Of a DNA stretch of 36,321 nucleotides, positions 1,785 to 35,738 are shown piece by piece. The stretch covers positions 1-36,321 of the IMG/VR virus record IMGVR_UViG_3300006169_000028; one strand, 5' to 3'. The translations under genes and the position numbers were made by a program. Each line of letters starts with the position of its first letter. Position 1 is the stretch's first letter. The stretch comes from a virus. Taxonomy: Duplodnaviria > Caudoviricetes. The notes below the pieces were generated by a model. It was not told where the DNA came from and did no database searches. It saw only the letters and a program-made list of their open reading frames with translations.

Positions 1785-2054
1785 TTATGCGGCCCGAGAC
1801 ACGAACCGCTCCAAGTGATCGGGATACCAGTTCGCCGGCATTTTGTCGGCCGGGATCTCTTGTTCGATCGCCTCGTGGCAATCCCAACAAAAGAGAACGG
1901 TTACGTCCCGGAACTCGAATCCGGAATCCCTGTAATGGCGACGAGGCCATACGTGGTGCGCGGTGAGGCGACGGATCTTCTGACACTTCGTACAACGGCC
2001 GATCGAGCCGGATTCGTGTCCGAGGCGTTCCGTAGCCAAGATCTCGAATAGCAT
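1785..2054 (-). CDS. HNH-like zinc-binding endonuclease
   Basis: CTKC...AHHVWP...CWDCH pattern; next to terS as for packaging-associated HNH genes; GAGGTGA Shine-Dalgarno 3 nt before the ATG. Confidence 0.7.
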   Translation of the reverse strand: MLFEILATERLGHESGSIGRCTKCQKIRRLTAHHVWPRRHYRDSGFEFRDVTVLFCWDCHEAIEQEIPADKMPANWYPDHLERFVSRAA

Positions 2055-2246: not shown

Positions 2247-2279
2247 AGCGAGGATTAGGGCTAGAAGGAACAAGAACGC

Positions 2280-2303
2280 AAAACGCCCCCCGTTAGGAGA
2301 GCG
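2280..2303 (-). terminator. Intrinsic terminator
   Basis: CGCTCTCC-TAAC-GGGGGGCG-TTTT; the two G.U pairs form only on the minus strand. Confidence 0.7.
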
Positions 2304-2366
2304 TATATACGTTACGTGGCGGTAGCGATCGAGCGTCGTTTTACTGAACAATCGATCAACATACCT
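2280..2366 (-). ncRNA. Candidate antisense small RNA (or attenuator leader)
   Basis: TATAAT at 2373-2378; 5' hairpin (GGTA/TACC, GATCGA/TCGATC, TTGTT/AACGA); unpaired GCCACGTAACGTA complementary to three gene leaders; terminator at 2280-2303. Confidence 0.55.
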
Positions 2367-2418
2367 TTGCTTATTATAGCCGTTATCTAGGCCAATAAAA
2401 GCGAAAGAATGTTTATAT

Positions 2419-4986: not shown

Positions 4987-5778
4987 CTATCTTCGGTTAT
5001 TAGCGAACTCTTTCGGTTTTTCCGGCGTGAACTTGATCCCGAGAATATCGGCTAGAGATTTGACGCCGTACATAGTTTCCCTTTGGTCGATCGGACGTTC
5101 TTCTTCGATCGGGCGATTCGGCCGGTATTGAAAGGCATAATGTTCGAGATCCTTCCAAAAGTCGGCGCGATTCTTCATATCATTCATAAGACCGTTTATC
5201 ACGGTAGAAGATAGGAAGACGCGAATCGAGGGCGAGAGCGTTTTATAACGTGGCGCGGCGAGGAAATAAATCATTAGTTGCTCGAATACGTTTTGCGATA
5301 CGTTGAGCTTATTTAATGCTTTCCCGAGCATTGATTTATCGGCGGCGGTGATCTGAACCGGTACGCCACGGAGACGTTTTCCGTTCTCGATAAAATATTC
5401 GATTAACTCGTTGAACATATTCGCATTCGGACTCGCTTTTTTCTTCGGATTTTTCGGCGGCTTGATTTCTTCCGGAACCTTCAAAAGCGTGTAAACGTGC
5501 GGCCGGCCCGGACGCTCCTCGATCGTAAGCAATCCGAGATCTTCGAGTTCTCGCTTAGCTTTGAAAGCGGTCGTTCGGCCGAGCGGTAGTTTTTCCGACA
5601 ACGCGGCGAGCGAGGGCCGGGCCTTTTGCGTGTGATTATTTGCGTACGTTGAGATCGCCATATATAGGCGAAACGCCGCATTCGAAACGTGCTTCGAAAA
5701 GATCACGCTCTTTTCTGTCCACGCCCATTTTTCCTCGCGGAGATCTCGGATCTCGATTTCTTGATTGTATTCACTCAT
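4987..5778 (-). CDS. Putative replication initiator with N-terminal winged HTH
   Basis: SNAAFRLYMAISTYAN...ARPSLAALSEKLPLGRTTAFKAKRELEDLGLL...HVYTL is typical of phage replisome-organiser N-termini, followed by a Lys/Pro linker and a helical domain. Confidence 0.75.
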   Translation of the reverse strand: MSEYNQEIEIRDLREEKWAWTEKSVIFSKHVSNAAFRLYMAISTYANNHTQKARPSLAALSEKLPLGRTTAFKAKRELEDLGLLTIEERPGRPHVYTLLKVPEEIKPPKNPKKKASPNANMFNELIEYFIENGKRLRGVPVQITAADKSMLGKALNKLNVSQNVFEQLMIYFLAAPRYKTLSPSIRVFLSSTVINGLMNDMKNRADFWKDLEHYAFQYRPNRPIEEERPIDQRETMYGVKSLADILGIKFTPEKPKEFANNRR

Positions 5779-5802
5779 TTTTAGCCACGTAATAAGCTAG
5801 TA

Positions 5803-6873: not shown

Positions 6874-7281
6874 CTATTTTCCGTCGACGAATCGCTCGAT
6901 CGCGCGGAAGAACCGTCGGCCGACTGTGTGCTTGTGGACGCCGATTTCTTCCCCGATTTGACGATATGATTCGTTATTAACTAACTTGCCGTAGAGGATC
7001 CTGTAATCGATCGGATCGAACATTCTTTTGAACTCCGGTAAAAGACGTTCTAGTTCGGCGTTATATTGTCCGATAAGTGCGTGCTGTTCGGAACCTGAAT
7101 CCGAATGTAGAAAGCGGCGTAATATCCCTTGAAGTTGTCCGAGCCGATAACGACGGATTTCCTTTTGTCGTTCGAGCTTTCGATCCGGCGAAGATACTTC
7201 CGGAGTCGGAACGTGCGAATCGGACTTTAGGCCGATATACATTAAAGCGATAACGACGAGAGCTATTAAGACGTAGATCAT
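6874..7281 (-). CDS. Membrane-anchored protein with sigma-70 region-4-like HTH
   Basis: N-terminal TM helix; C-terminal ESYRQIGEEIGVHKHTVGRRFFRAIERF. Confidence 0.7.
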   Translation of the reverse strand: MIYVLIALVVIALMYIGLKSDSHVPTPEVSSPDRKLERQKEIRRYRLGQLQGILRRFLHSDSGSEQHALIGQYNAELERLLPEFKRMFDPIDYRILYGKLVNNESYRQIGEEIGVHKHTVGRRFFRAIERFVDGK

Positions 7282-7282
7282 A

Positions 7283-9226
7283 TTATTTGTTTATGTTAAA
7301 GAACCCTTGTAATCGTTTAAGTTCTCGATCGCGCGGATCCATATACAGACAATCGCCGCGCCCCCGTAGTTTTTCCGCCCCGGCCTGATCGAGAATGACC
7401 CGGGAATCCGTGGTCGAGGCGGTTGCGAACGCAATCCGGGCCGGAAGGTTCGCTTTGATTAAGCCAGTAACAACGTCAACGCTCGGGCGTTGTGTAGCGA
7501 TAATCGCGTGAATACCGACCGCCCGGGCTTTCTGAACAATCCGCACAATAAGCGACTCGAACGATCCGACTTCGAGATCCATTCCGTAGTCGGTAAGCAT
7601 AAGATCGGCGAACTCGTCGATCACAAGAACGATCCGGTGAAGCGGTTTATTCTCGATATTGTATTCGTCGATATTGCGCGCTCCCACTTTTTCGAGTTTG
7701 TTATACCGCGCTTCCATTTCTAGCGTTAGCCAGTGAACCGCCTTCGTTGCCGGAAGTGTCTCGTATATCGGTTTTTCCAGTAAGAAGGCGCTGTCGCGGT
7801 ACTGTGAAAGCTCGACGCGCTTCGGATCGATCATTACGAATCGGAGCGATTCGGGCGTATTTTGCGAGATAAGAGACTCGATTGCGGTTGATAAAAAGAC
7901 CGATTTACCTTGACCGGTCGCCCCGGCGACGAGTAAGTGCGGCATATCCGCGAGCGATCGAACGACGGTTTTACCGTATACGTCCCGACCGATCGGAATA
8001 TTAAGCGACTCGGAAACGTAAAAGTCCTTTCGATCCGCGAAGATCGGTTTCGATTCTTCCTTTGTCGGAACCTCGAATCCGACCGTAGATGTACCCGGGA
8101 TCGGCGCTAGAACGCGAATAGAGTCGCTTTCGAGGGCGTAGGCTATATCGTTAGCGTGCTTCTCGAAATCGCTCATTTTGCGGCCTCGTGAGGGCTTCGC
8201 GGTGTATAGCGTGATATTTGGCCCCCGGTGTGTATCGCGCATTTCAACGGCTAGTCCGAACTCTTGAAGTTTGAGACGGATCTTTTCTTCGGCGGTTATA
8301 TGCTCGTTTTGCATTTGATCGACCGGAGATTGAACGAAGCGCTTTTCGGCGAACTGAACGTCGCGCGTCTTCTTTTCGGAAAGAATCACGTCGTCGGTTC
8401 CGAGTAGGTTTTGCGAGTAGATTATGAAGGAATCTTTCGCGCTCATTCGATCCGATAGGTTCGGAAGGTAGATTCGATCACGTCGGGCCATTTCGTAGGT
8501 ACAGTGATTATATAGATTCGCAAAGAAGGTAAAGTACGACGGATTATCGCCGAATACGATCTCGATCGGTCGCCATTGCGGAGAGCCGTCCCGGTTCTCG
8601 CTTGTCTTGATCTCGTCGAAGACGATCGAATGCGGTTCTTCGTTTAAGTGATTCTTGACGGCGTGATAGTAGAACATTCCTTGCAAGATCTGATTCGGCT
8701 CGTCGAGATCGTCGTCGGAAAACGAGGAAACGAACTTCGTATCTCGAATGACAATCCGTCCGTCTTCGTCTCGAATAACAAGATCCGGATACGCTTTAAT
8801 CGGGATCGCCGCCTTTGCAATCGAGCCGTCCGGATTCGGAAGTTCGATTTCGGTTAAGATCTTTTCTTCGGAAAGCTCGACGTGATCGAATCGCGGAACT
8901 TCTTCGAAGTAGAAGTTTAGTCCGGCGGTTAAAGTCTTCAATGCTTTTTCAAGCGACCCCGTTTTACCGAAGTCGATCGCGCCTTGCATATTTGTTAAAT
9001 GCTGAACGCCGACTTCAATCGCCCCCGGAATATCGTCTTGCGAATATTCGTAGAAGTGCGCGAGTGCTTTGTGTCCGGCTTGCCCGACGGCCCCGGCGAC
9101 GCTGAACGTATCTTCGTAAACCCCCTCGACGTATCTTTTCTTCCACCGGATCGGATCGGAGAGGAACGTCCGCATAGACGAATAGCTCCAATGATCGATA
9201 GGATAGGTTATATCTTGTTTAGTCAT
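7283..9226 (-). CDS. PD-(D/E)XK nuclease fused to an FtsK/SpoIIIE DNA translocase motor
   Basis: N-terminus HWSYSSM...GQAGHKAL...PDLV...DTK; C-terminus PHLLVAGATGQGKS, MIDPKRVEL, VIDEFADL, ATQRPS, GAEKLRGRGD. ATG 9226 preferred over GTG 9232. Confidence 0.92.
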   Translation of the reverse strand: MTKQDITYPIDHWSYSSMRTFLSDPIRWKKRYVEGVYEDTFSVAGAVGQAGHKALAHFYEYSQDDIPGAIEVGVQHLTNMQGAIDFGKTGSLEKALKTLTAGLNFYFEEVPRFDHVELSEEKILTEIELPNPDGSIAKAAIPIKAYPDLVIRDEDGRIVIRDTKFVSSFSDDDLDEPNQILQGMFYYHAVKNHLNEEPHSIVFDEIKTSENRDGSPQWRPIEIVFGDNPSYFTFFANLYNHCTYEMARRDRIYLPNLSDRMSAKDSFIIYSQNLLGTDDVILSEKKTRDVQFAEKRFVQSPVDQMQNEHITAEEKIRLKLQEFGLAVEMRDTHRGPNITLYTAKPSRGRKMSDFEKHANDIAYALESDSIRVLAPIPGTSTVGFEVPTKEESKPIFADRKDFYVSESLNIPIGRDVYGKTVVRSLADMPHLLVAGATGQGKSVFLSTAIESLISQNTPESLRFVMIDPKRVELSQYRDSAFLLEKPIYETLPATKAVHWLTLEMEARYNKLEKVGARNIDEYNIENKPLHRIVLVIDEFADLMLTDYGMDLEVGSFESLIVRIVQKARAVGIHAIIATQRPSVDVVTGLIKANLPARIAFATASTTDSRVILDQAGAEKLRGRGDCLYMDPRDRELKRLQGFFNINK

Positions 9227-9242
9227 TTCCACGTAACGTAAT

Positions 9243-9307: not shown

Positions 9308-10468
9308 CTAAAGCGTTACACCGTGATCGTTGAATAACTTTTGAATCGCCGCAACGATTTCGTTTGAAGTCTGCTCCCCGATTCCCGGAAGATCACTATA
9401 AATCCCGATCGCCGCGCCTTCGTTGTGCTTCATAGCCTCGCCAACGGTTGCGAGTCCGTATTCTCGCATAACTTTACACGCGCCCGGTTTGATACCCGGA
9501 ACGAGATCGATACTCATTTTTTTGATCTTCTCGATCATTTCTTCCTCGGAAGGATCCCGGAGAGCGTCGGAGAGCGATCCGTGTCCGTCGGCTTCTTCTT
9601 CACCTTCAAAAAGTGAGTCCGACTCCGGTTCAACGTTTGTCGCTTCGTCGTGAATGATCGTATCCGGCGTTACACCTCGAAGCTCGTTTTTCTTTTTTCC
9701 TAGTACGGCTTGAGATTGATCGTTTGAAATCTCGCCGGATTTAACTTCATATTCGACCGTTTCAAGATCGCCGCCGACAACGAGGCCGGAAAGTGCTTCG
9801 GGAACGATAAAGGCGGCAATATCGCCGATTGCTTTATAGCGAAGCATTCGTTCGGGCCATTTCTTCCACGCGCTCCGTTCGGTTATAAGACCTTTTTCCC
9901 GAGCCTGATCGATCGTAAACTTGCCCGTCATAGACGCGCCATTATCGCGGCGAGTAATCTTCACTTCGGCGGCCTTCTTGTCGTTCTGAATCCATTCAAT
10001 ATCGGCGTAACGAAGTATTCGTTGAATAACGATCGATCCATAAAGCGAGAGTTTACCGTTTACGAAATAGAACGAGTTCAACGATTGAATCGGAGTCAAC
10101 CCCATTTCATACCCGGCTTGAAGGGCCATAACCACCTTCGGCGTGTTATCCATAGTTGCCGGAAGTGCGTTCGATTTAGAGAAAGTTTCGGCGGCGATAT
10201 TGATCGCTTGCCACAGCTTCGGATTTAAGAAGTTAAGCGACCGAGCTTCGGCGTTTTGAATGTATTGATCGCTAGGCGCGGCCAGTTCTTGACCGAGTGC
10301 GGTTTTAGTTTGAGTCGCTTTTGCGACGGCGCTTGTAACAGTTGATTCGATCGTCCGAATAACTTCCGGCGATACTGTTCCGGCCGGATCTTCGGTTTTA
10401 GTTTGATCGGCTCCGGTGTCCGGATTGTCGACCTTCTTGTCTTCGGTTGTGTTGATGTTTTCGCTCAT
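9308..10468 (-). CDS. RecT/Red-beta-like single-strand annealing protein with C-terminal helix-hairpin-helix domain
   Basis: ALQAGYEMGLTPIQSLNSFYFVNGK...AWKKWPERMLRYKA...PEALSG matches the RecT-family pattern; C-terminal VPGIKP and LPGIGEQTS HhH motifs. Confidence 0.82.
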   Translation of the reverse strand: MSENINTTEDKKVDNPDTGADQTKTEDPAGTVSPEVIRTIESTVTSAVAKATQTKTALGQELAAPSDQYIQNAEARSLNFLNPKLWQAINIAAETFSKSNALPATMDNTPKVVMALQAGYEMGLTPIQSLNSFYFVNGKLSLYGSIVIQRILRYADIEWIQNDKKAAEVKITRRDNGASMTGKFTIDQAREKGLITERSAWKKWPERMLRYKAIGDIAAFIVPEALSGLVVGGDLETVEYEVKSGEISNDQSQAVLGKKKNELRGVTPDTIIHDEATNVEPESDSLFEGEEEADGHGSLSDALRDPSEEEMIEKIKKMSIDLVPGIKPGACKVMREYGLATVGEAMKHNEGAAIGIYSDLPGIGEQTSNEIVAAIQKLFNDHGVTL

Positions 10469-10493
10469 AGTCCACGTAATAGGTTAATGATTT

Positions 10494-10733
10494 TTAAAGT
10501 GCGTACGTCCCGGCTTCGAATCGTTGCCGCAATCGTAGGGCGTTAGCGCCCTTTATGAAAATCCGGGTTCCCTTGCCTTCACCGCTTATATTTGCGGCGA
10601 GTAAGTTCTCGGATTCCCGATCGCGATCGACGATCGAACGGTACGTTGTGTATGAACTCGCCCACGGCCACGCATTAAGTTCGAGTAGCGCGCGGAGCGA
10701 GTACATAGTGTTCGGTTCGATTTGCTTTTTCAT
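10494..10733 (-). CDS. Small putative DNA-binding protein (Xis/MerR-like architecture)
   Basis: 79 aa from ATG 10733; MYSLRALLE helix, SYTTYRSIV helix and GEGKGTRIFI hairpin; has its own promoter. Confidence 0.55.
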   Translation of the reverse strand: MKKQIEPNTMYSLRALLELNAWPWASSYTTYRSIVDRDRESENLLAANISGEGKGTRIFIKGANALRLRQRFEAGTYAL

Positions 10734-12973: not shown

Positions 12974-12981
12974 TGTTAGAA

Positions 12982-12990
12982 TGTGGATAA
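12982..12990 (-). promoter_or_regulatory. Perfect DnaA box
   Basis: TTATCCACA, 8 bp upstream of the -35 of the early promoter. Confidence 0.55.
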
Positions 12991-13014
12991 CGAAAATACG
13001 GCCATAAATAACAC

Positions 13015-13138
13015 AAAAGCCGCCTTCGTGAACAGAAGCCGGCGCGCGTGTGGATACTATGAGCGAAGCAAAGTAACCGAACCGAAGAAGGGCGCGCCGG
13101 ATCCTGCTCGCGAGAGCGGCTAGGATCGCGTATACGGC
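13015..13138 (-). ncRNA. Candidate cloverleaf antisense RNA in the 3' UTR of the lysis operon
   Basis: Four-way junction GCCGT/GCGGC, GATCCT/AGGATC, CCGGCGCGC/GCGCGCCGG with a 44-nt loop, CTTC/GAAG with a 7-nt loop, then TTTT; loop complementary to many gene starts. Confidence 0.65.
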
Positions 13139-13141
13139 GTT

Positions 13142-13522
13142 TTATTGAACGAGTGTACTATCGGGACTATTCGAGGGCGAAACGGCCGCTACGGGCGCAA
13201 TAACGACGTCCGCCGGGTTCTTTACGCGGTTATAGAAGTCGTGGATAAAGTTCGATCCGCGTCCGACGAGTGATCCGGTAATAATCGGGCCTACTAGCGG
13301 AATCGCGGTCGTAAGTCCGAGGATCGCGAGAAGATCGGCGTCGTAGGCGATCGCGAGAGCGATTCCGACGAGCATTGATACATATTTAACGCTTTCCATT
13401 GTCGAACCGTCCGGGCGCTTGAAAAATGGCGCTACGTAATACTCGACAAGAGCTTCCGCGACGGTTGCAAGAAGTAGGATTCCTCCGAACGTTGCGACTA
13501 GGCTTGAAAGTGTCGTTTCCAT
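13142..13522 (-). CDS. Putative holin
   Basis: Three hydrophobic segments and GSLVGRGSNFIHD; follows the endolysin. Confidence 0.75.
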   Translation of the reverse strand: METTLSSLVATFGGILLLATVAEALVEYYVAPFFKRPDGSTMESVKYVSMLVGIALAIAYDADLLAILGLTTAIPLVGPIITGSLVGRGSNFIHDFYNRVKNPADVVIAPVAAVSPSNSPDSTLVQ

Positions 13523-15022: not shown

Positions 15023-15067
15023 AAGTATCAATGTCTAGTTAAAAGGATAGTTATTAGTATAGTTCGG

Positions 15068-15160
15068 GTTCAATATCTGAACTACCCCCGTTCAATATCT
15101 GAACTACCCCCGTTCGGATTCTGAACGGGTAAGCCACCCGTTCAATATCTGAATGGGTAG
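15068..15160. repeat. Iteron-like repeat array, putative replication origin
   Basis: GTTCAATATCTGAACTACCCCC twice in tandem (22 bp), then GTTCGGATTCTGAAC at 15112 and GTTCAATATCTGAAT at 15140; palindromic cores; AT-rich flank at 15026-15064. Confidence 0.75.
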
Positions 15161-17697: not shown

Positions 17698-19173
17698 TTA
17701 CGTACCCCATTCGGCTTTACCCCACGTAAACGATCCCCATTGAAACGGCGGCGTCGAGTTCGTGCGCGAGGCGCTTTCCTGAATCCCGATCGCTTCGCCG
17801 ACTCCGAATATTTTATTAAAGTCTTCCGTTTCGCCGGGTACGGACTCGTTTTCGTACAACGCTTCTATAAACTCTTTGACTCCGATCAAACGACCGCCAA
17901 AGCGAAGGCTATATTCATATTCGACGTCCGGGGTTTCGTCCGGTTTAGGAAGAATCCGGATAATGACTTCGCGAAGCGGATACGTAGTATCGGTTGAGAT
18001 ACCCCACGTCGGGAAGTTGATCGTTATTAGTTGGCCCTGTCGGAAGATATTTTCCGGATCCGAGAGCAATCCGGAGCGTGTATTTATTTCGCCGATAATA
18101 AGCGGATTCCCGAAATCTTCTACTTCCTGAATCGCGCGATCGAGAGCTTCTTCGCGAGTGGTGATCGTGTCGTCTTCGATAAAATAATCGTGCTCGCCGT
18201 CCCCTCCTTCTAGCGCCGCCATTGCCGCGATTGAAACTTCGCCGCGATATTTAATCAAAATCGGCGTTTCCTCGTAATACTGAACGTTTAGAGTTTCGGC
18301 CGAAGATAGCACGCCCCGGGCCGACGAGTTCCGGACGGATCCGGCCGAAAAGTTCACGATCCAATCGACCGATTCTTCGTCGACTAGGTTCTCGTATCCG
18401 TACGTCGCCGGTGATCCATTGACTGTAAACGAAGCGATTTCTTTCGGCCTCGACTCCATAAAATAGGTTCCCGTACTATCGTCGCCGGTTACTTCATATT
18501 CGACCGTCCCGGCCGATTGTGTCATACCGCCTTCGACCGTGATAACGTTTCGAACCTGTGTCGTATCGCGGTCGATCCTGACTTCGGAAAGGTTTGTCGA
18601 GTTGTCGCTGAATGATTCCGGAGCCGGGTTATTTTCGGTTAGGAAAAAGTGAACGTCTTTATAATAGTCGATATACCACGAATACCCGGTAATCTTCGAG
18701 AGCTTTTTAAAACATTCTTTAAGCGGAATATGACCGAATGAAACGGAAGTAATCGTCGGCCCGGAAGCGACGACGTTCATATACGTTACTCCGTACGAAG
18801 AATCGACGTATCGATCGATAAGATCCCGAACAATATCGCCGAGCGTTTCGTTTTCGTAGGTTATTTGAGCGTTTTTATTATTAAGAATATACGTATAGTC
18901 CGAGACTTCGACTTCGTGAAGAATGTAATCGCCCTTGTTCGTTTCCTCGGGTTCGACTCGCGTTATGTACCCGGCGAAGATTCGCGGTGATCCGGTAATA
19001 TCGGGATCAACGATAATCACCTCCGAAGATTCGTTCGGTTTCGATTGACCGGGCTTTTGCTGAATATTAAAACGCGCGACATTTGCTTCGTCGTTTAGGC
19101 GTTCTGTTATTTCGATCGGGTTTTGTTTTAGTTGCGGAAGAAAGTCATTTCCGCCGATCGTTAGCGTAATCAT
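17698..19173 (-). CDS. Tail tip / baseplate hub protein
   Basis: 491 aa, immediately after the tape measure gene; RIFAGYI, WYIDYYKDVHFF and VRNVITVEGG are hub-like. Confidence 0.75.
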   Translation of the reverse strand: MITLTIGGNDFLPQLKQNPIEITERLNDEANVARFNIQQKPGQSKPNESSEVIIVDPDITGSPRIFAGYITRVEPEETNKGDYILHEVEVSDYTYILNNKNAQITYENETLGDIVRDLIDRYVDSSYGVTYMNVVASGPTITSVSFGHIPLKECFKKLSKITGYSWYIDYYKDVHFFLTENNPAPESFSDNSTNLSEVRIDRDTTQVRNVITVEGGMTQSAGTVEYEVTGDDSTGTYFMESRPKEIASFTVNGSPATYGYENLVDEESVDWIVNFSAGSVRNSSARGVLSSAETLNVQYYEETPILIKYRGEVSIAAMAALEGGDGEHDYFIEDDTITTREEALDRAIQEVEDFGNPLIIGEINTRSGLLSDPENIFRQGQLITINFPTWGISTDTTYPLREVIIRILPKPDETPDVEYEYSLRFGGRLIGVKEFIEALYENESVPGETEDFNKIFGVGEAIGIQESASRTNSTPPFQWGSFTWGKAEWGT

Positions 19174-33068: not shown

Positions 33069-33120
33069 ATTGAAAGTATACATTAGTTTTTTAACAAGTT
33101 TCATTATAGCGCGCGTGGAT

Positions 33121-33147
33121 AAAAAAAGATCCGGGCGTCCCCGGATC
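33121..33147 (-). terminator. Intrinsic terminator
   Basis: GATCCGGG-GACG-CCCGGATC-TTTTTTT. Confidence 0.85.
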
Positions 33148-33330
33148 GATCGATCGTAAATATTTCGCGCGTTGACGGTTTGACCTTGCCCGAGCCTCGC
33201 CGTTCCCGTGTTATGTGAATGAATGCGCGTTGACTTTAAGATTCATAATAGGCCGCGACCCCGGACGCGCCGGCGGCGAGTTATGAGCACGCCGCTCGAA
33301 TCGTTCTCGATCGCCGATACTTGATCCGTG
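33121..33330 (-). ncRNA. Candidate structured ncRNA of about 210 nt
   Basis: TGcTAGAAT at 33336-33344, strong terminator at 33121, only very short ORFs (18 and 11 aa) seen on this strand, several complementary segments. Confidence 0.45.
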
Positions 33331-33333
33331 CCG

Positions 33334-33462
33334 TCATTCTAGCACGCGGTCGATTGACGCCGGAGCTTCGACTCTGTTTATATCCGGGCCATACACGATC
33401 AAAGCAAGTAGTGAGTAAAGAAGGATTGCGACGAGAGTGTAGAGAAGAATCTTTTTAAGCAT
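33334..33462 (-). CDS. Small membrane protein (42 aa)
   Basis: Not in the ORF track. MLKKILLYTLVAILLYSLLALIVYGPDINRVEAPASIDRVLE; starts 1 nt after the upstream stop. Confidence 0.7.
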   Translation of the reverse strand: MLKKILLYTLVAILLYSLLALIVYGPDINRVEAPASIDRVLE

Positions 33463-34468: not shown

Positions 34469-35738
34469 CTTCTTCGGTTACGTCTTTAACTGATTTCGTT
34501 ACGACAATGTCTTCGTCGTCGTCGGTTCGCTCCGGAAGTCCTAGATTCTCGCGGAAGAACTGTTCGTCGGCCTCGATCACGCCAACCGCCCCGGTATCCG
34601 TTAGCGTCTTGTATGCGTCGGCGAGTCCCTTTACGTCGACCGTCGTAATGCCGGTATAGTCAAGCTGTGGATAAGCGGTTACGTTGTCGTAGTTCATATC
34701 GACAATCTGCTTTATGACGTACTTATTGAATGCGTCGACAAAGTTATTCGCAACCGCCTCGACCGATTGAAGGAATAGATCGGATTGATCGGCCGAAAGC
34801 GCATACGAGCCGGTTTCGTTAGCGCCAAGTTCTAGGAACTGCGCGAGGGCCGCTTTTAGAATCTCGCGGTTATGATTTGCGATCGCTTTTTCCGGAGACG
34901 CAATCGACCCGGATTTCATATCCATAAACTTGAAGTCCACCTTGCCGTTCCCGACTATGTACGCTTGTTCGTCCGCGTAAAGATTTTCAAGAACCTGTTC
35001 GGCCTTGCGCTTTGATTCGTCGTCCCATTCCGTACCTTCCCTCGGATCGGCCATAGGAATACCGAGGCCGTGGCGTTCGTATGCGAGCGCCTCGATCTTG
35101 TAGAAGTTATTTTTGAAAAACCAATGCTTATATGGCGCGCGAAGAATCGAAGTTCCCCACCAGTTATCTCCCTCCTTTTCATTTACGATAATCAAAAGTT
35201 TTTCGATCGGGATTGAAACCGTACGGGCGTCCGTACTATTTGCGAGTTGCTGAACGATTCCGTCTTCACCGTCGATCGTTTGCCACCGTTCGATCGTCGT
35301 CGGAAGGCGCGGCGCCAGTTTACGAAGAACGACCATATCCCGGCCGTTGACCGTTCGAATATCGAACACCTTCTCGAACACGGATACGCCAAAATCAAGA
35401 CAAAGAAGCGCCTGTCGTATCACGTCGTCCCACGTCATAGACATTTCTTCAAAAAGGTTTTGCGAGATACGATCGGCGATTTCAATATCGCGCTCCTCTT
35501 GCGAGGCCGGCTTTATGTACCAGTTAGCACGGCGGATCGGTAGTTTTAAAACGCGAAGAAGTGCGGAGATCGTACCGTCTGACTTCCGCATTTCGTCATA
35601 GATCGTCATTGCCCGAACGCCGTCTAGCTCGGGATTATAATCGTGCGAGATAATACCTTTCCAGTTACTCGTCCCGGTTTGACCGTACTCCGGCCCGCGT
35701 ACTTTTACGTTTGAGTCTTGAGAGTCGACGTTCGCCAT
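34452..35738 (-). CDS. Portal protein (Mu gp29 / DUF935-like)
   Basis: YDEMRKSDGTI, GVSVFEKV, WGTSILRAPY, ERHGLGIP, GSYALS; directly after terL. Confidence 0.9.
   Translation of the reverse strand: MANVDSQDSNVKVRGPEYGQTGTSNWKGIISHDYNPELDGVRAMTIYDEMRKSDGTISALLRVLKLPIRRANWYIKPASQEERDIEIADRISQNLFEEMSMTWDDVIRQALLCLDFGVSVFEKVFDIRTVNGRDMVVLRKLAPRLPTTIERWQTIDGEDGIVQQLANSTDARTVSIPIEKLLIIVNEKEGDNWWGTSILRAPYKHWFFKNNFYKIEALAYERHGLGIPMADPREGTEWDDESKRKAEQVLENLYADEQAYIVGNGKVDFKFMDMKSGSIASPEKAIANHNREILKAALAQFLELGANETGSYALSADQSDLFLQSVEAVANNFVDAFNKYVIKQIVDMNYDNVTAYPQLDYTGITTVDVKGLADAYKTLTDTGAVGVIEADEQFFRENLGLPERTDDDEDIVVTKSVKDVTEEDVDDL

Follow-up and report, generated by a model that had tools for sequence, protein, structure and literature searches.

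A predicted small phage RNA with an open linker complementary to the leaders of three DNA-metabolism genes

On the coding strand of the phage genome analysed here, a hairpin, a short open linker and a terminator-like stem follow one another directly, and the linker is complementary to bases just before the start codons of three DNA-metabolism genes. The locus raises the question whether this unit is a small RNA acting on those genes by base pairing, or whether a translated leader, a protein-binding site on the DNA or plain chance accounts better for the match.

Genome setting and layout of the RNA1 unit

The window, by which we mean the whole stretch of DNA analysed, is the entire virus record of 36,321 bases, and its 87-base terminal repeat indicates a circular 36.2-kb genome and hence a complete phage. 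All called genes lie on the minus strand in the order terminase, portal, protease, capsid, tail, amidase and early genes, followed by a RecT-like gene, a nuclease-FtsK fusion, a sigma-region-4-like gene (6874-7281), a replication initiator, a RusA-like resolvase and an HNH-like gene. Pfam and PHROG matches bear out the three target genes that had been named in the original prediction, namely a PD-(D/E)XK nuclease fused to an FtsK-like motor (7283..9226, minus; PF12705, PF17854 and PF01580), a replication initiator-like protein (4987..5778, minus; phrog_270, E 2.9e-9, HTH_36) and a RecT-like single-strand annealing protein (9308..10468, minus; phrog_561, E 1.8e-14). The HNH-like gene (1785..2054, minus), which has weak PHROG HNH matches with E values of 5e-4 to 5e-3, lies 3' of the unit studied here. 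ARAGORN found no tRNA in the window, and the Rfam covariance models gave no match with E<=1 across its full length.

A Shine-Dalgarno-like 4-mer is present in only 4 of the 49 leaders of the window. From these Shine-Dalgarno-poor leaders and the TATAAT-type promoters we infer a Parcubacteria-like bacterium as the host; the anti-Shine-Dalgarno motif is present in only 48% of Parcubacteria according to a published survey (PMC9297842). A -10-like box stands 6-19 nt 5' of the start in 8 of the 50 called genes (starts at 35738, 22689, 21101, 17137, 16135, 15796, 3468 and 33083, minus), which suggests that many messages of this phage may be leaderless or near-leaderless, with promoters set gene by gene. 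Boxes reading TTATCCAC, which we take to be DnaA-box-like, stand 5' of several promoters both in the window (33104-33130, 12980-12990 and 13243-13250, minus) and in relatives, the window holding five copies on the coding strand and two on the other. A further repeat, a 15-base motif present three times together with one variant at about 15065-15155 (minus), occupies the gap before the lysin promoter and is a candidate operator or set of replication-origin iterons.

The unit itself, termed RNA1 in the following, is a predicted small RNA of about 88 nt at 2279..2366 (minus), with its ends inferred from a -10 box and a terminator. The TATAAT -10 box (2373..2378, minus) is of the same kind as those before several structural genes; no -35 box accompanies it, and a sigma-70 -35/-10 scan does not list this promoter. 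The transcript would begin with a 5' hairpin (2321..2365, minus; about -14 kcal/mol) with the start codon of a mini-ORF buried inside it, pass through a linker of 16 nt (2305..2320, minus) that is predicted to be unpaired with a probability of 0.6-0.9 and holds the seed, and end in a terminator-like stem (2279..2304, minus) with 9 pairs at 2304-2283 and then only four U. The positions originally assigned to box, hairpin, linker and terminator are all correct.

Several computations single out this unit. Its fold has a z-score of -3.44, none of 200 shuffles being equally stable, and its terminator is the second-ranked site of the terminator scan; the same terminator would also close the upstream early/middle transcript. 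A search by structure alone returned four promoter-terminator units without a called gene, RNA1 among them, and rejection of one as an artefact inside the terminase gene leaves RNA1 as one of three. In a read-through RNA the seed is predicted to pair with bases 3' of the terminator, so that only the terminated form of RNA1 would be active. The third gene-free unit, at 33127-33341 (minus), precedes the protease-capsid operon and contains a small stem with a CUCAUAA loop, which we take to resemble an initiator-tRNA anticodon arm; it does not fold better than its shuffles (z +0.64), and ARAGORN finds nothing in it.

Coding potential around the unit was considered as well. A 97-codon ORF running through RNA1 (2351-2058) was rejected as a gene, as it has no relatives among 1.84 billion representatives; an exact look-up gave no match either, which is a weak test, as a real HNH-like ORF failed it likewise. 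The same 97-codon frame contains a 62-codon ORF with a hydrophobic start (2058-2246, minus), which ends 3 nt before the HNH ATG.

The 16-codon uORF that had been noted at 2362-2312 does exist (2312..2362, minus), and its stop lies inside the seed, 7 nt 5' of the terminator stem. RNA1 could be a translated leader, in which a ribosome on this near-leaderless ORF stops 7 nt before the terminator and thereby sets how often transcription continues into the HNH cassette. Action in trans by the released RNA may come in addition, and both functions could coexist. The mini-ORF ATG stands 10 nt after the TATAAT, an arrangement shared with 8 of 50 called genes and expected by chance in about 6% of cases, and the scans found no promoter-like box between terminator and HNH gene, which would then be reached by read-through only. 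Pairing in trans is also within reach of attenuator RNAs, as the work on rnTrpL indicates (PMC6614838). The same ATG is, however, the most buried of 51 starts, requiring 12.0 kcal/mol to open compared with 0-10.5 kcal/mol for the 50 called starts, and the 16-codon peptide contains no run of one codon. The original prediction had offered such an attenuator as its alternative; the ORF upstream of a terminator is indeed present, but an antiterminator hairpin is absent, since the region simply stays open and 14-17 kcal/mol are lost when the terminator is forbidden. Attenuators working by ribosome occlusion, for which pyrBI-type attenuation is the model, need no antiterminator hairpin, and the 7-nt distance from stop to stem would let a ribosome cover the 5' arm of the terminator with no alternative hairpin needed. 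A translated leader would also leave the complement at three starts unexplained. We consider this reading unlikely.

The leader tag, its three starts and the role of chance

The octamer TTACGTGG lies close to three ATGs, ending 2 nt before that of nuclease-FtsK, 3 nt before that of RecT and 6 nt before that of the replication initiator, and complementarity of the linker to 12, 9 and 8 nt before nuclease-FtsK, initiator and RecT was confirmed at every site. The first site (9229..9240, minus) is a perfect match of 12 nt before the nuclease-FtsK ATG at 9226, where three further pairs follow beyond a bulge; at -20.0 kcal/mol it is the best site genome-wide. The second, of 9 nt (5784..5792, minus), precedes the initiator ATG at 5778, and the third, of 8 nt (10472..10479, minus), the RecT-like ATG at 10468. 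Since RNA1 and its targets share the minus strand, the match is a true antisense one.

A listing of all octamers, proposed originally as a check, places three of the four coding-strand copies at starts but also returns one that had been missed, inside a tail gene and 41 nt from the next start (17722..17729, minus). On both strands together the octamer occurs five times compared with 0.88 expected, a count reached by none of 100 shuffles, and the RNA1 linker is its only coding-strand complement. Tolerating one mismatch raises the number of coding-strand sites to 18, with no additional one near a start. A 24-codon plus-strand ORF from a GTG inside the octamer was judged to be chance. Three of the 49 leaders carry the tag, which after correction for the full set of 8-mers gives E 0.0023 and ranks it second only to a different tag, TAACCGAA; three of its four coding-strand copies end no more than 10 nt from a start (binomial p 1.4e-5). 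Judged by such sequence statistics, the leader tag itself is real rather than chance. Both tags have exactly one coding-strand complement each, and both complements lie in non-coding structured stretches.

When hybrid and opening energies are summed, nuclease-FtsK, initiator and RecT take ranks 1, 2 and 3 of 50 starts. The net energies after opening costs amount to -15.5, -8.1 and -7.7 kcal/mol, respectively, with the next start at -5.8 kcal/mol; opening the RNA1 seed costs 0.4 kcal/mol, and the three target starts likewise open at little cost (0.7-1.3 kcal/mol). Within the mRNA, the initiator and FtsK tags are predicted to be partly base-paired. The sites for RNA1 span -18 to -3 of the target starts. 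Ranked genome-wide by hybrid energy alone, the initiator site comes about 23rd and the RecT site falls outside the top 25; as only the FtsK site tops this list, specificity for the initiator and RecT rests on position, and the duplexes with these two starts are modest.

The octamer has a palindromic ACGT core, which two leaders extend to TATTACGTGG, as might be expected of a DNA site for a phage protein, for example the small winged-helix protein encoded just before RecT, with the RNA1 copy as an inverted operator. This 79-aa protein (10494-10733) resembles excisionase/MerR-type folds, a lead only, with scores under 0.9, and a -10-like box lies about 25 nt above the nuclease-FtsK site. The three sites are, however, fixed to start codons at 2, 3 and 6 nt and not to promoters, the RecT site lies within a 25-nt gap inside an operon, and the predicted unpaired linker is precisely where the inverted copy sits. 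In addition, a two-part match in the related L121 group, described below, has its mismatches opposite Shine-Dalgarno bases, which suits RNA pairing better than a second operator. An operator function of the tag therefore appears improbable to us.

How far the mirror copy in RNA1 exceeds chance varies from strongly to not at all with the choice of null. Among 200,000 shuffled linkers, 141 had one 8-mer that matched three leaders; for shuffled whole RNAs the figure was 321 of 20,000. For a wider null all 1,855 non-coding bases were shuffled 3,000 times; a bare three-leader 8-mer of either tag family then arose in 805 of the 3,000 shuffles and one extended to 12 nt in 44, most chance matches stemming from the larger TAACCGAA family, while the TTACGTGG tag alone gave 75 and 4 of 3,000, respectively. 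A pooled weighted genome-wide score returned p 0.45 for RNA1 and p 0.005 for RNA2, the second RNA discussed below. A fair genome-wide chance is about 0.015, before counting the placement in the free linker.

A further reading takes the unit for no more than a terminator, preceded by a hairpin and ending the early/middle transcript, with an accidental complement to the leaders. The 805 bare matches and the pooled value for RNA1 speak in its favour, as do the lack of conservation of RNA1 and the fact that it was picked post hoc from a whole genome. The rarity of the 12-nt extension and of placement in a 16-nt linker speaks against it, as does a second independent tag-mirror pair in the same genome, and we assign a low probability to this reading. 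Pairing of an RNA seed with the three starts, as originally proposed, is the best reading of the data: ranks 1-3 of 50 and the free linker support it, while two of the duplexes are modest and the significance depends on the null.

A second RNA and recurrence of the layout in relatives

RNA2 is a second structured RNA at 12995..13140 (minus), located after the holin-like gene and folding into a long stem of 145 nt with a large apical loop (z -4.78). Its seed (13074..13086, minus) is the only coding-strand complement of TAACCGAA, a tag present in 7 of 49 leaders, and statistically it is stronger than RNA1. A second segment (13050..13067, minus) is predicted to pair across the RecT start with -24.8 kcal/mol, rank 1 of 50 starts. 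At this start RNA1 is predicted to cover -11 to -4 and RNA2 about -8 to +10, so the overlap of both RNAs on the RecT leader that had been anticipated is borne out as a prediction. RNA1 is most likely one of two such predicted RNAs in this genome. A likeness of RNA2 over 22 nt to four loci was dropped, as it is the antisense of a coding gene.

Long-stem RNAs after the lysis genes, usually followed by a terminator, were observed in many relatives (G012, G014, G017, G018, G019, G029, G030, G032, G033 and G040) as well as at 12995-13140 (minus) in the window. Several of these post-holin RNAs share a sub-hairpin with a GGUU/GUUG loop, and the phages concerned frequently have leader motifs of the AACC type. 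Rfam gave no match for the post-holin RNAs searched, which are possibly an undescribed RNA family.

Homologues of the target genes place the phage in a group of 35-45 kb phages with 30-50% identity, with 37 matches for nuclease-FtsK and 20 for RecT, self included in both; the closest terminases are at most 63% identical to that of the window. From 168 loci and 35 whole or partial records retrieved, a set of 50 sequences was analysed, comprising the 35 records, 14 loci and the window, with near-duplicate loci excluded. None of these relatives has an RNA1 homologue or the ACGTGG tag before an orthologous gene; blastn and nhmmer over a part of the loci gave nothing significant, and the sole pattern-scan match to RNA1, in a tape-measure gene of an unrelated contig, is chance. 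Searches through single proteins yielded no close relatives, and alignment of RecT in species genomes none either. With Rfam, three related loci gave one weak chance match and eight further loci only a tRNA.

The hairpin-mirror layout is not family-wide. A loose scan of the 50 sequences at k=7 gave 20 matches compared with 18-20 in controls, and at k=8 it gave 11 compared with 4 and 6 in controls and a shuffle mean of 8.35 (max 13). An initial scan that had returned 22 of 34 loci, compared with 2 and 5 in controls, consisted mostly of opposite-strand gene leaders, and the excess vanished once these were excluded. A weighted test was passed at p<=0.05 by 6 of 50 sequences compared with 2.5 expected; three of those that pass (G008, G011 and G039) are doubtful on inspection.

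Two relatives, G004 (p 0.005) and G017 (p 0.05), each have a non-coding structured RNA with a terminator that complements a tag of its own genome, and from their sequences these tag-mirror pairs look convincing. The tag of G004 precedes RecT and nuclease-FtsK, that of G017 precedes RecT. The G017 RNA sits at the same post-holin place as RNA2, and its loop is the only complement of GCAATACC. When shortened by one base, the G017 tag marks a homologue of a TAACCGAA-carrying window gene (tail chaperone, E 4e-9); a second gene pair between G017 and the window is matched by position only (E 0.73). The L121 group fails the weighted test (p 0.39); it shows a two-part match of 8 + 7 bases that flanks Shine-Dalgarno bases, and 19 of 19 near-identical loci carry this seed unaltered, their closeness limiting the weight of the observation. 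Taken at sequence level, the same layout with different tags would thus be present in three distant lineages (G004, G017 and L121), each including RecT, and in a minority of the relatives. Strong tags without a non-coding mirror were found in G030, G018, G010, G014, G038 and L010, three of these six being partial. Structured RNAs lie directly 5' of the RecT promoter in two Shine-Dalgarno-using lineages (L121:9040-9200 and L098:8790-8960), with loops complementary to their shared early-gene leaders.

Proposed action and relation to known systems

Taken together, we regard RNA1 with moderate confidence as a seed-pairing small RNA that likely represses the nuclease-FtsK, RecT and initiator genes. 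It would exist as a distinct RNA, transcribed from the TATAAT promoter of its own or derived from the 3' end of the upstream transcript. Its -10-only promoter is like those in front of structural genes, so production may be late, the original proposal having placed it at the early/late boundary. Its open linker would pair with the tag just before the RecT, nuclease-FtsK and initiator starts, and a duplex of 8-15 bp at -18 to -3 would block ribosome loading on these A-rich, Shine-Dalgarno-less leaders. RNA2 would work in the same manner through the second tag, and with the RecT start within reach of either RNA the two may form the circuit that was originally suggested.

The opposite sign of regulation has to be weighed as well, with pairing that switches translation on by replacing the missing Shine-Dalgarno contact or by opening the leaders. 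The tags occupy the usual Shine-Dalgarno place in a genome where only 4 of 49 leaders carry such a motif, some bases of the initiator and FtsK tags are predicted to pair within the mRNA, and many Parcubacteria are without an anti-Shine-Dalgarno motif (PMC9297842). The target starts are, however, already easily opened at 0.7-1.3 kcal/mol, and the layout also occurs in relatives with ordinary Shine-Dalgarno motifs (G004 and L121). A duplex in the mRNA channel of the ribosome normally blocks loading, and one that ends 2-6 nt before the AUG would sit in that channel. As the boldest of the readings, activation is also the one we consider least probable, and we judge it very unlikely. Carried to its end, it would have phage address tags, with RNA1 and RNA2 as guides, license initiation for two gene sets on host ribosomes without an anti-Shine-Dalgarno tail, a scheme to which we likewise attach only a very small probability.

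For repression by RNA1, the closest parallel in layout is provided by the start-associated sequences (SAS) of Cluster K mycobacteriophages, which Pope et al. 2011 describe as lying 3-7 bp ahead of start codons, four phages having one copy in the opposite orientation; whether an RNA or a protein binds the motif is left open there (PMC3203893). SAS are also described for Cluster EF Microbacterium phages (PMC7302621). Like the window tag, SAS are asymmetric, phage-specific motifs a few bases before the ATG of non-structural genes, in one orientation, with a lone reverse copy in the four Cluster K phages. SAS comprise 13 bp in 11-19 copies with an AGGAG core, whereas the tag of the window has 8-10 nt, three leaders and no such core; the window has, in addition, a second tag with its own mirror RNA, and there is no sequence likeness to SAS. 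The window tag is SAS-like in layout but is not a SAS member. In mycobacteriophage Anaya, of which the right 35.8 kb of 60.8 kb were examined, we found 16 forward SAS copies and one reverse; the latter (L248:34871-34883, corresponding to about 59870 of JF704106.1) occupies the loop of a long hairpin in the gap that separates genes 96 and 97.

Three described RNAs share single features with RNA1. StxS, from the terminated late leader of Shiga-toxin phages, resembles the predicted RNA1 in running only from a promoter to a terminator ahead of late genes and in pairing in trans with mRNAs, one of them a phage mRNA. Described features of StxS include Hfq binding, processing and dependence on Q antitermination, and its targets as given there share no private tag (PMC7547250). 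The rnTrpL RNA of Sinorhizobium meliloti is a terminated leader with a short ORF that represses related genes in trans, but it senses tryptophan via codon runs and alternative hairpins, neither of which is present in RNA1 (PMC6614838). By analogy, rnTrpL could serve as the model if a translated leader and trans repression both hold. The C4 antisense RNA of phage P1 pairs through short segments and has an Rfam family. Like RNA1 as predicted here, C4 is phage-encoded and uses base pairing to repress genes of its own phage; it acts on its own immI operon, whereas the targets of RNA1 lie 3.5-8 kb away (PMC8198154).

Within the literature covered, from which subscription journals are mostly absent, no work links start-associated sequences to a small RNA, and none describes such an RNA in these phages; the opening part of a 2025 review of phage small RNAs names no such case (PMC12197685). 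That two repressing RNAs with private tags represent a recurring phage design, which would also explain start-associated sequences, falls slightly short of an even chance in our estimation. If true, one short RNA and a private tag would control a functional class of genes whose leaders are without Shine-Dalgarno motifs, and what start-associated sequences do, a matter that the 2011 work did not settle, would become testable in cultured phages.
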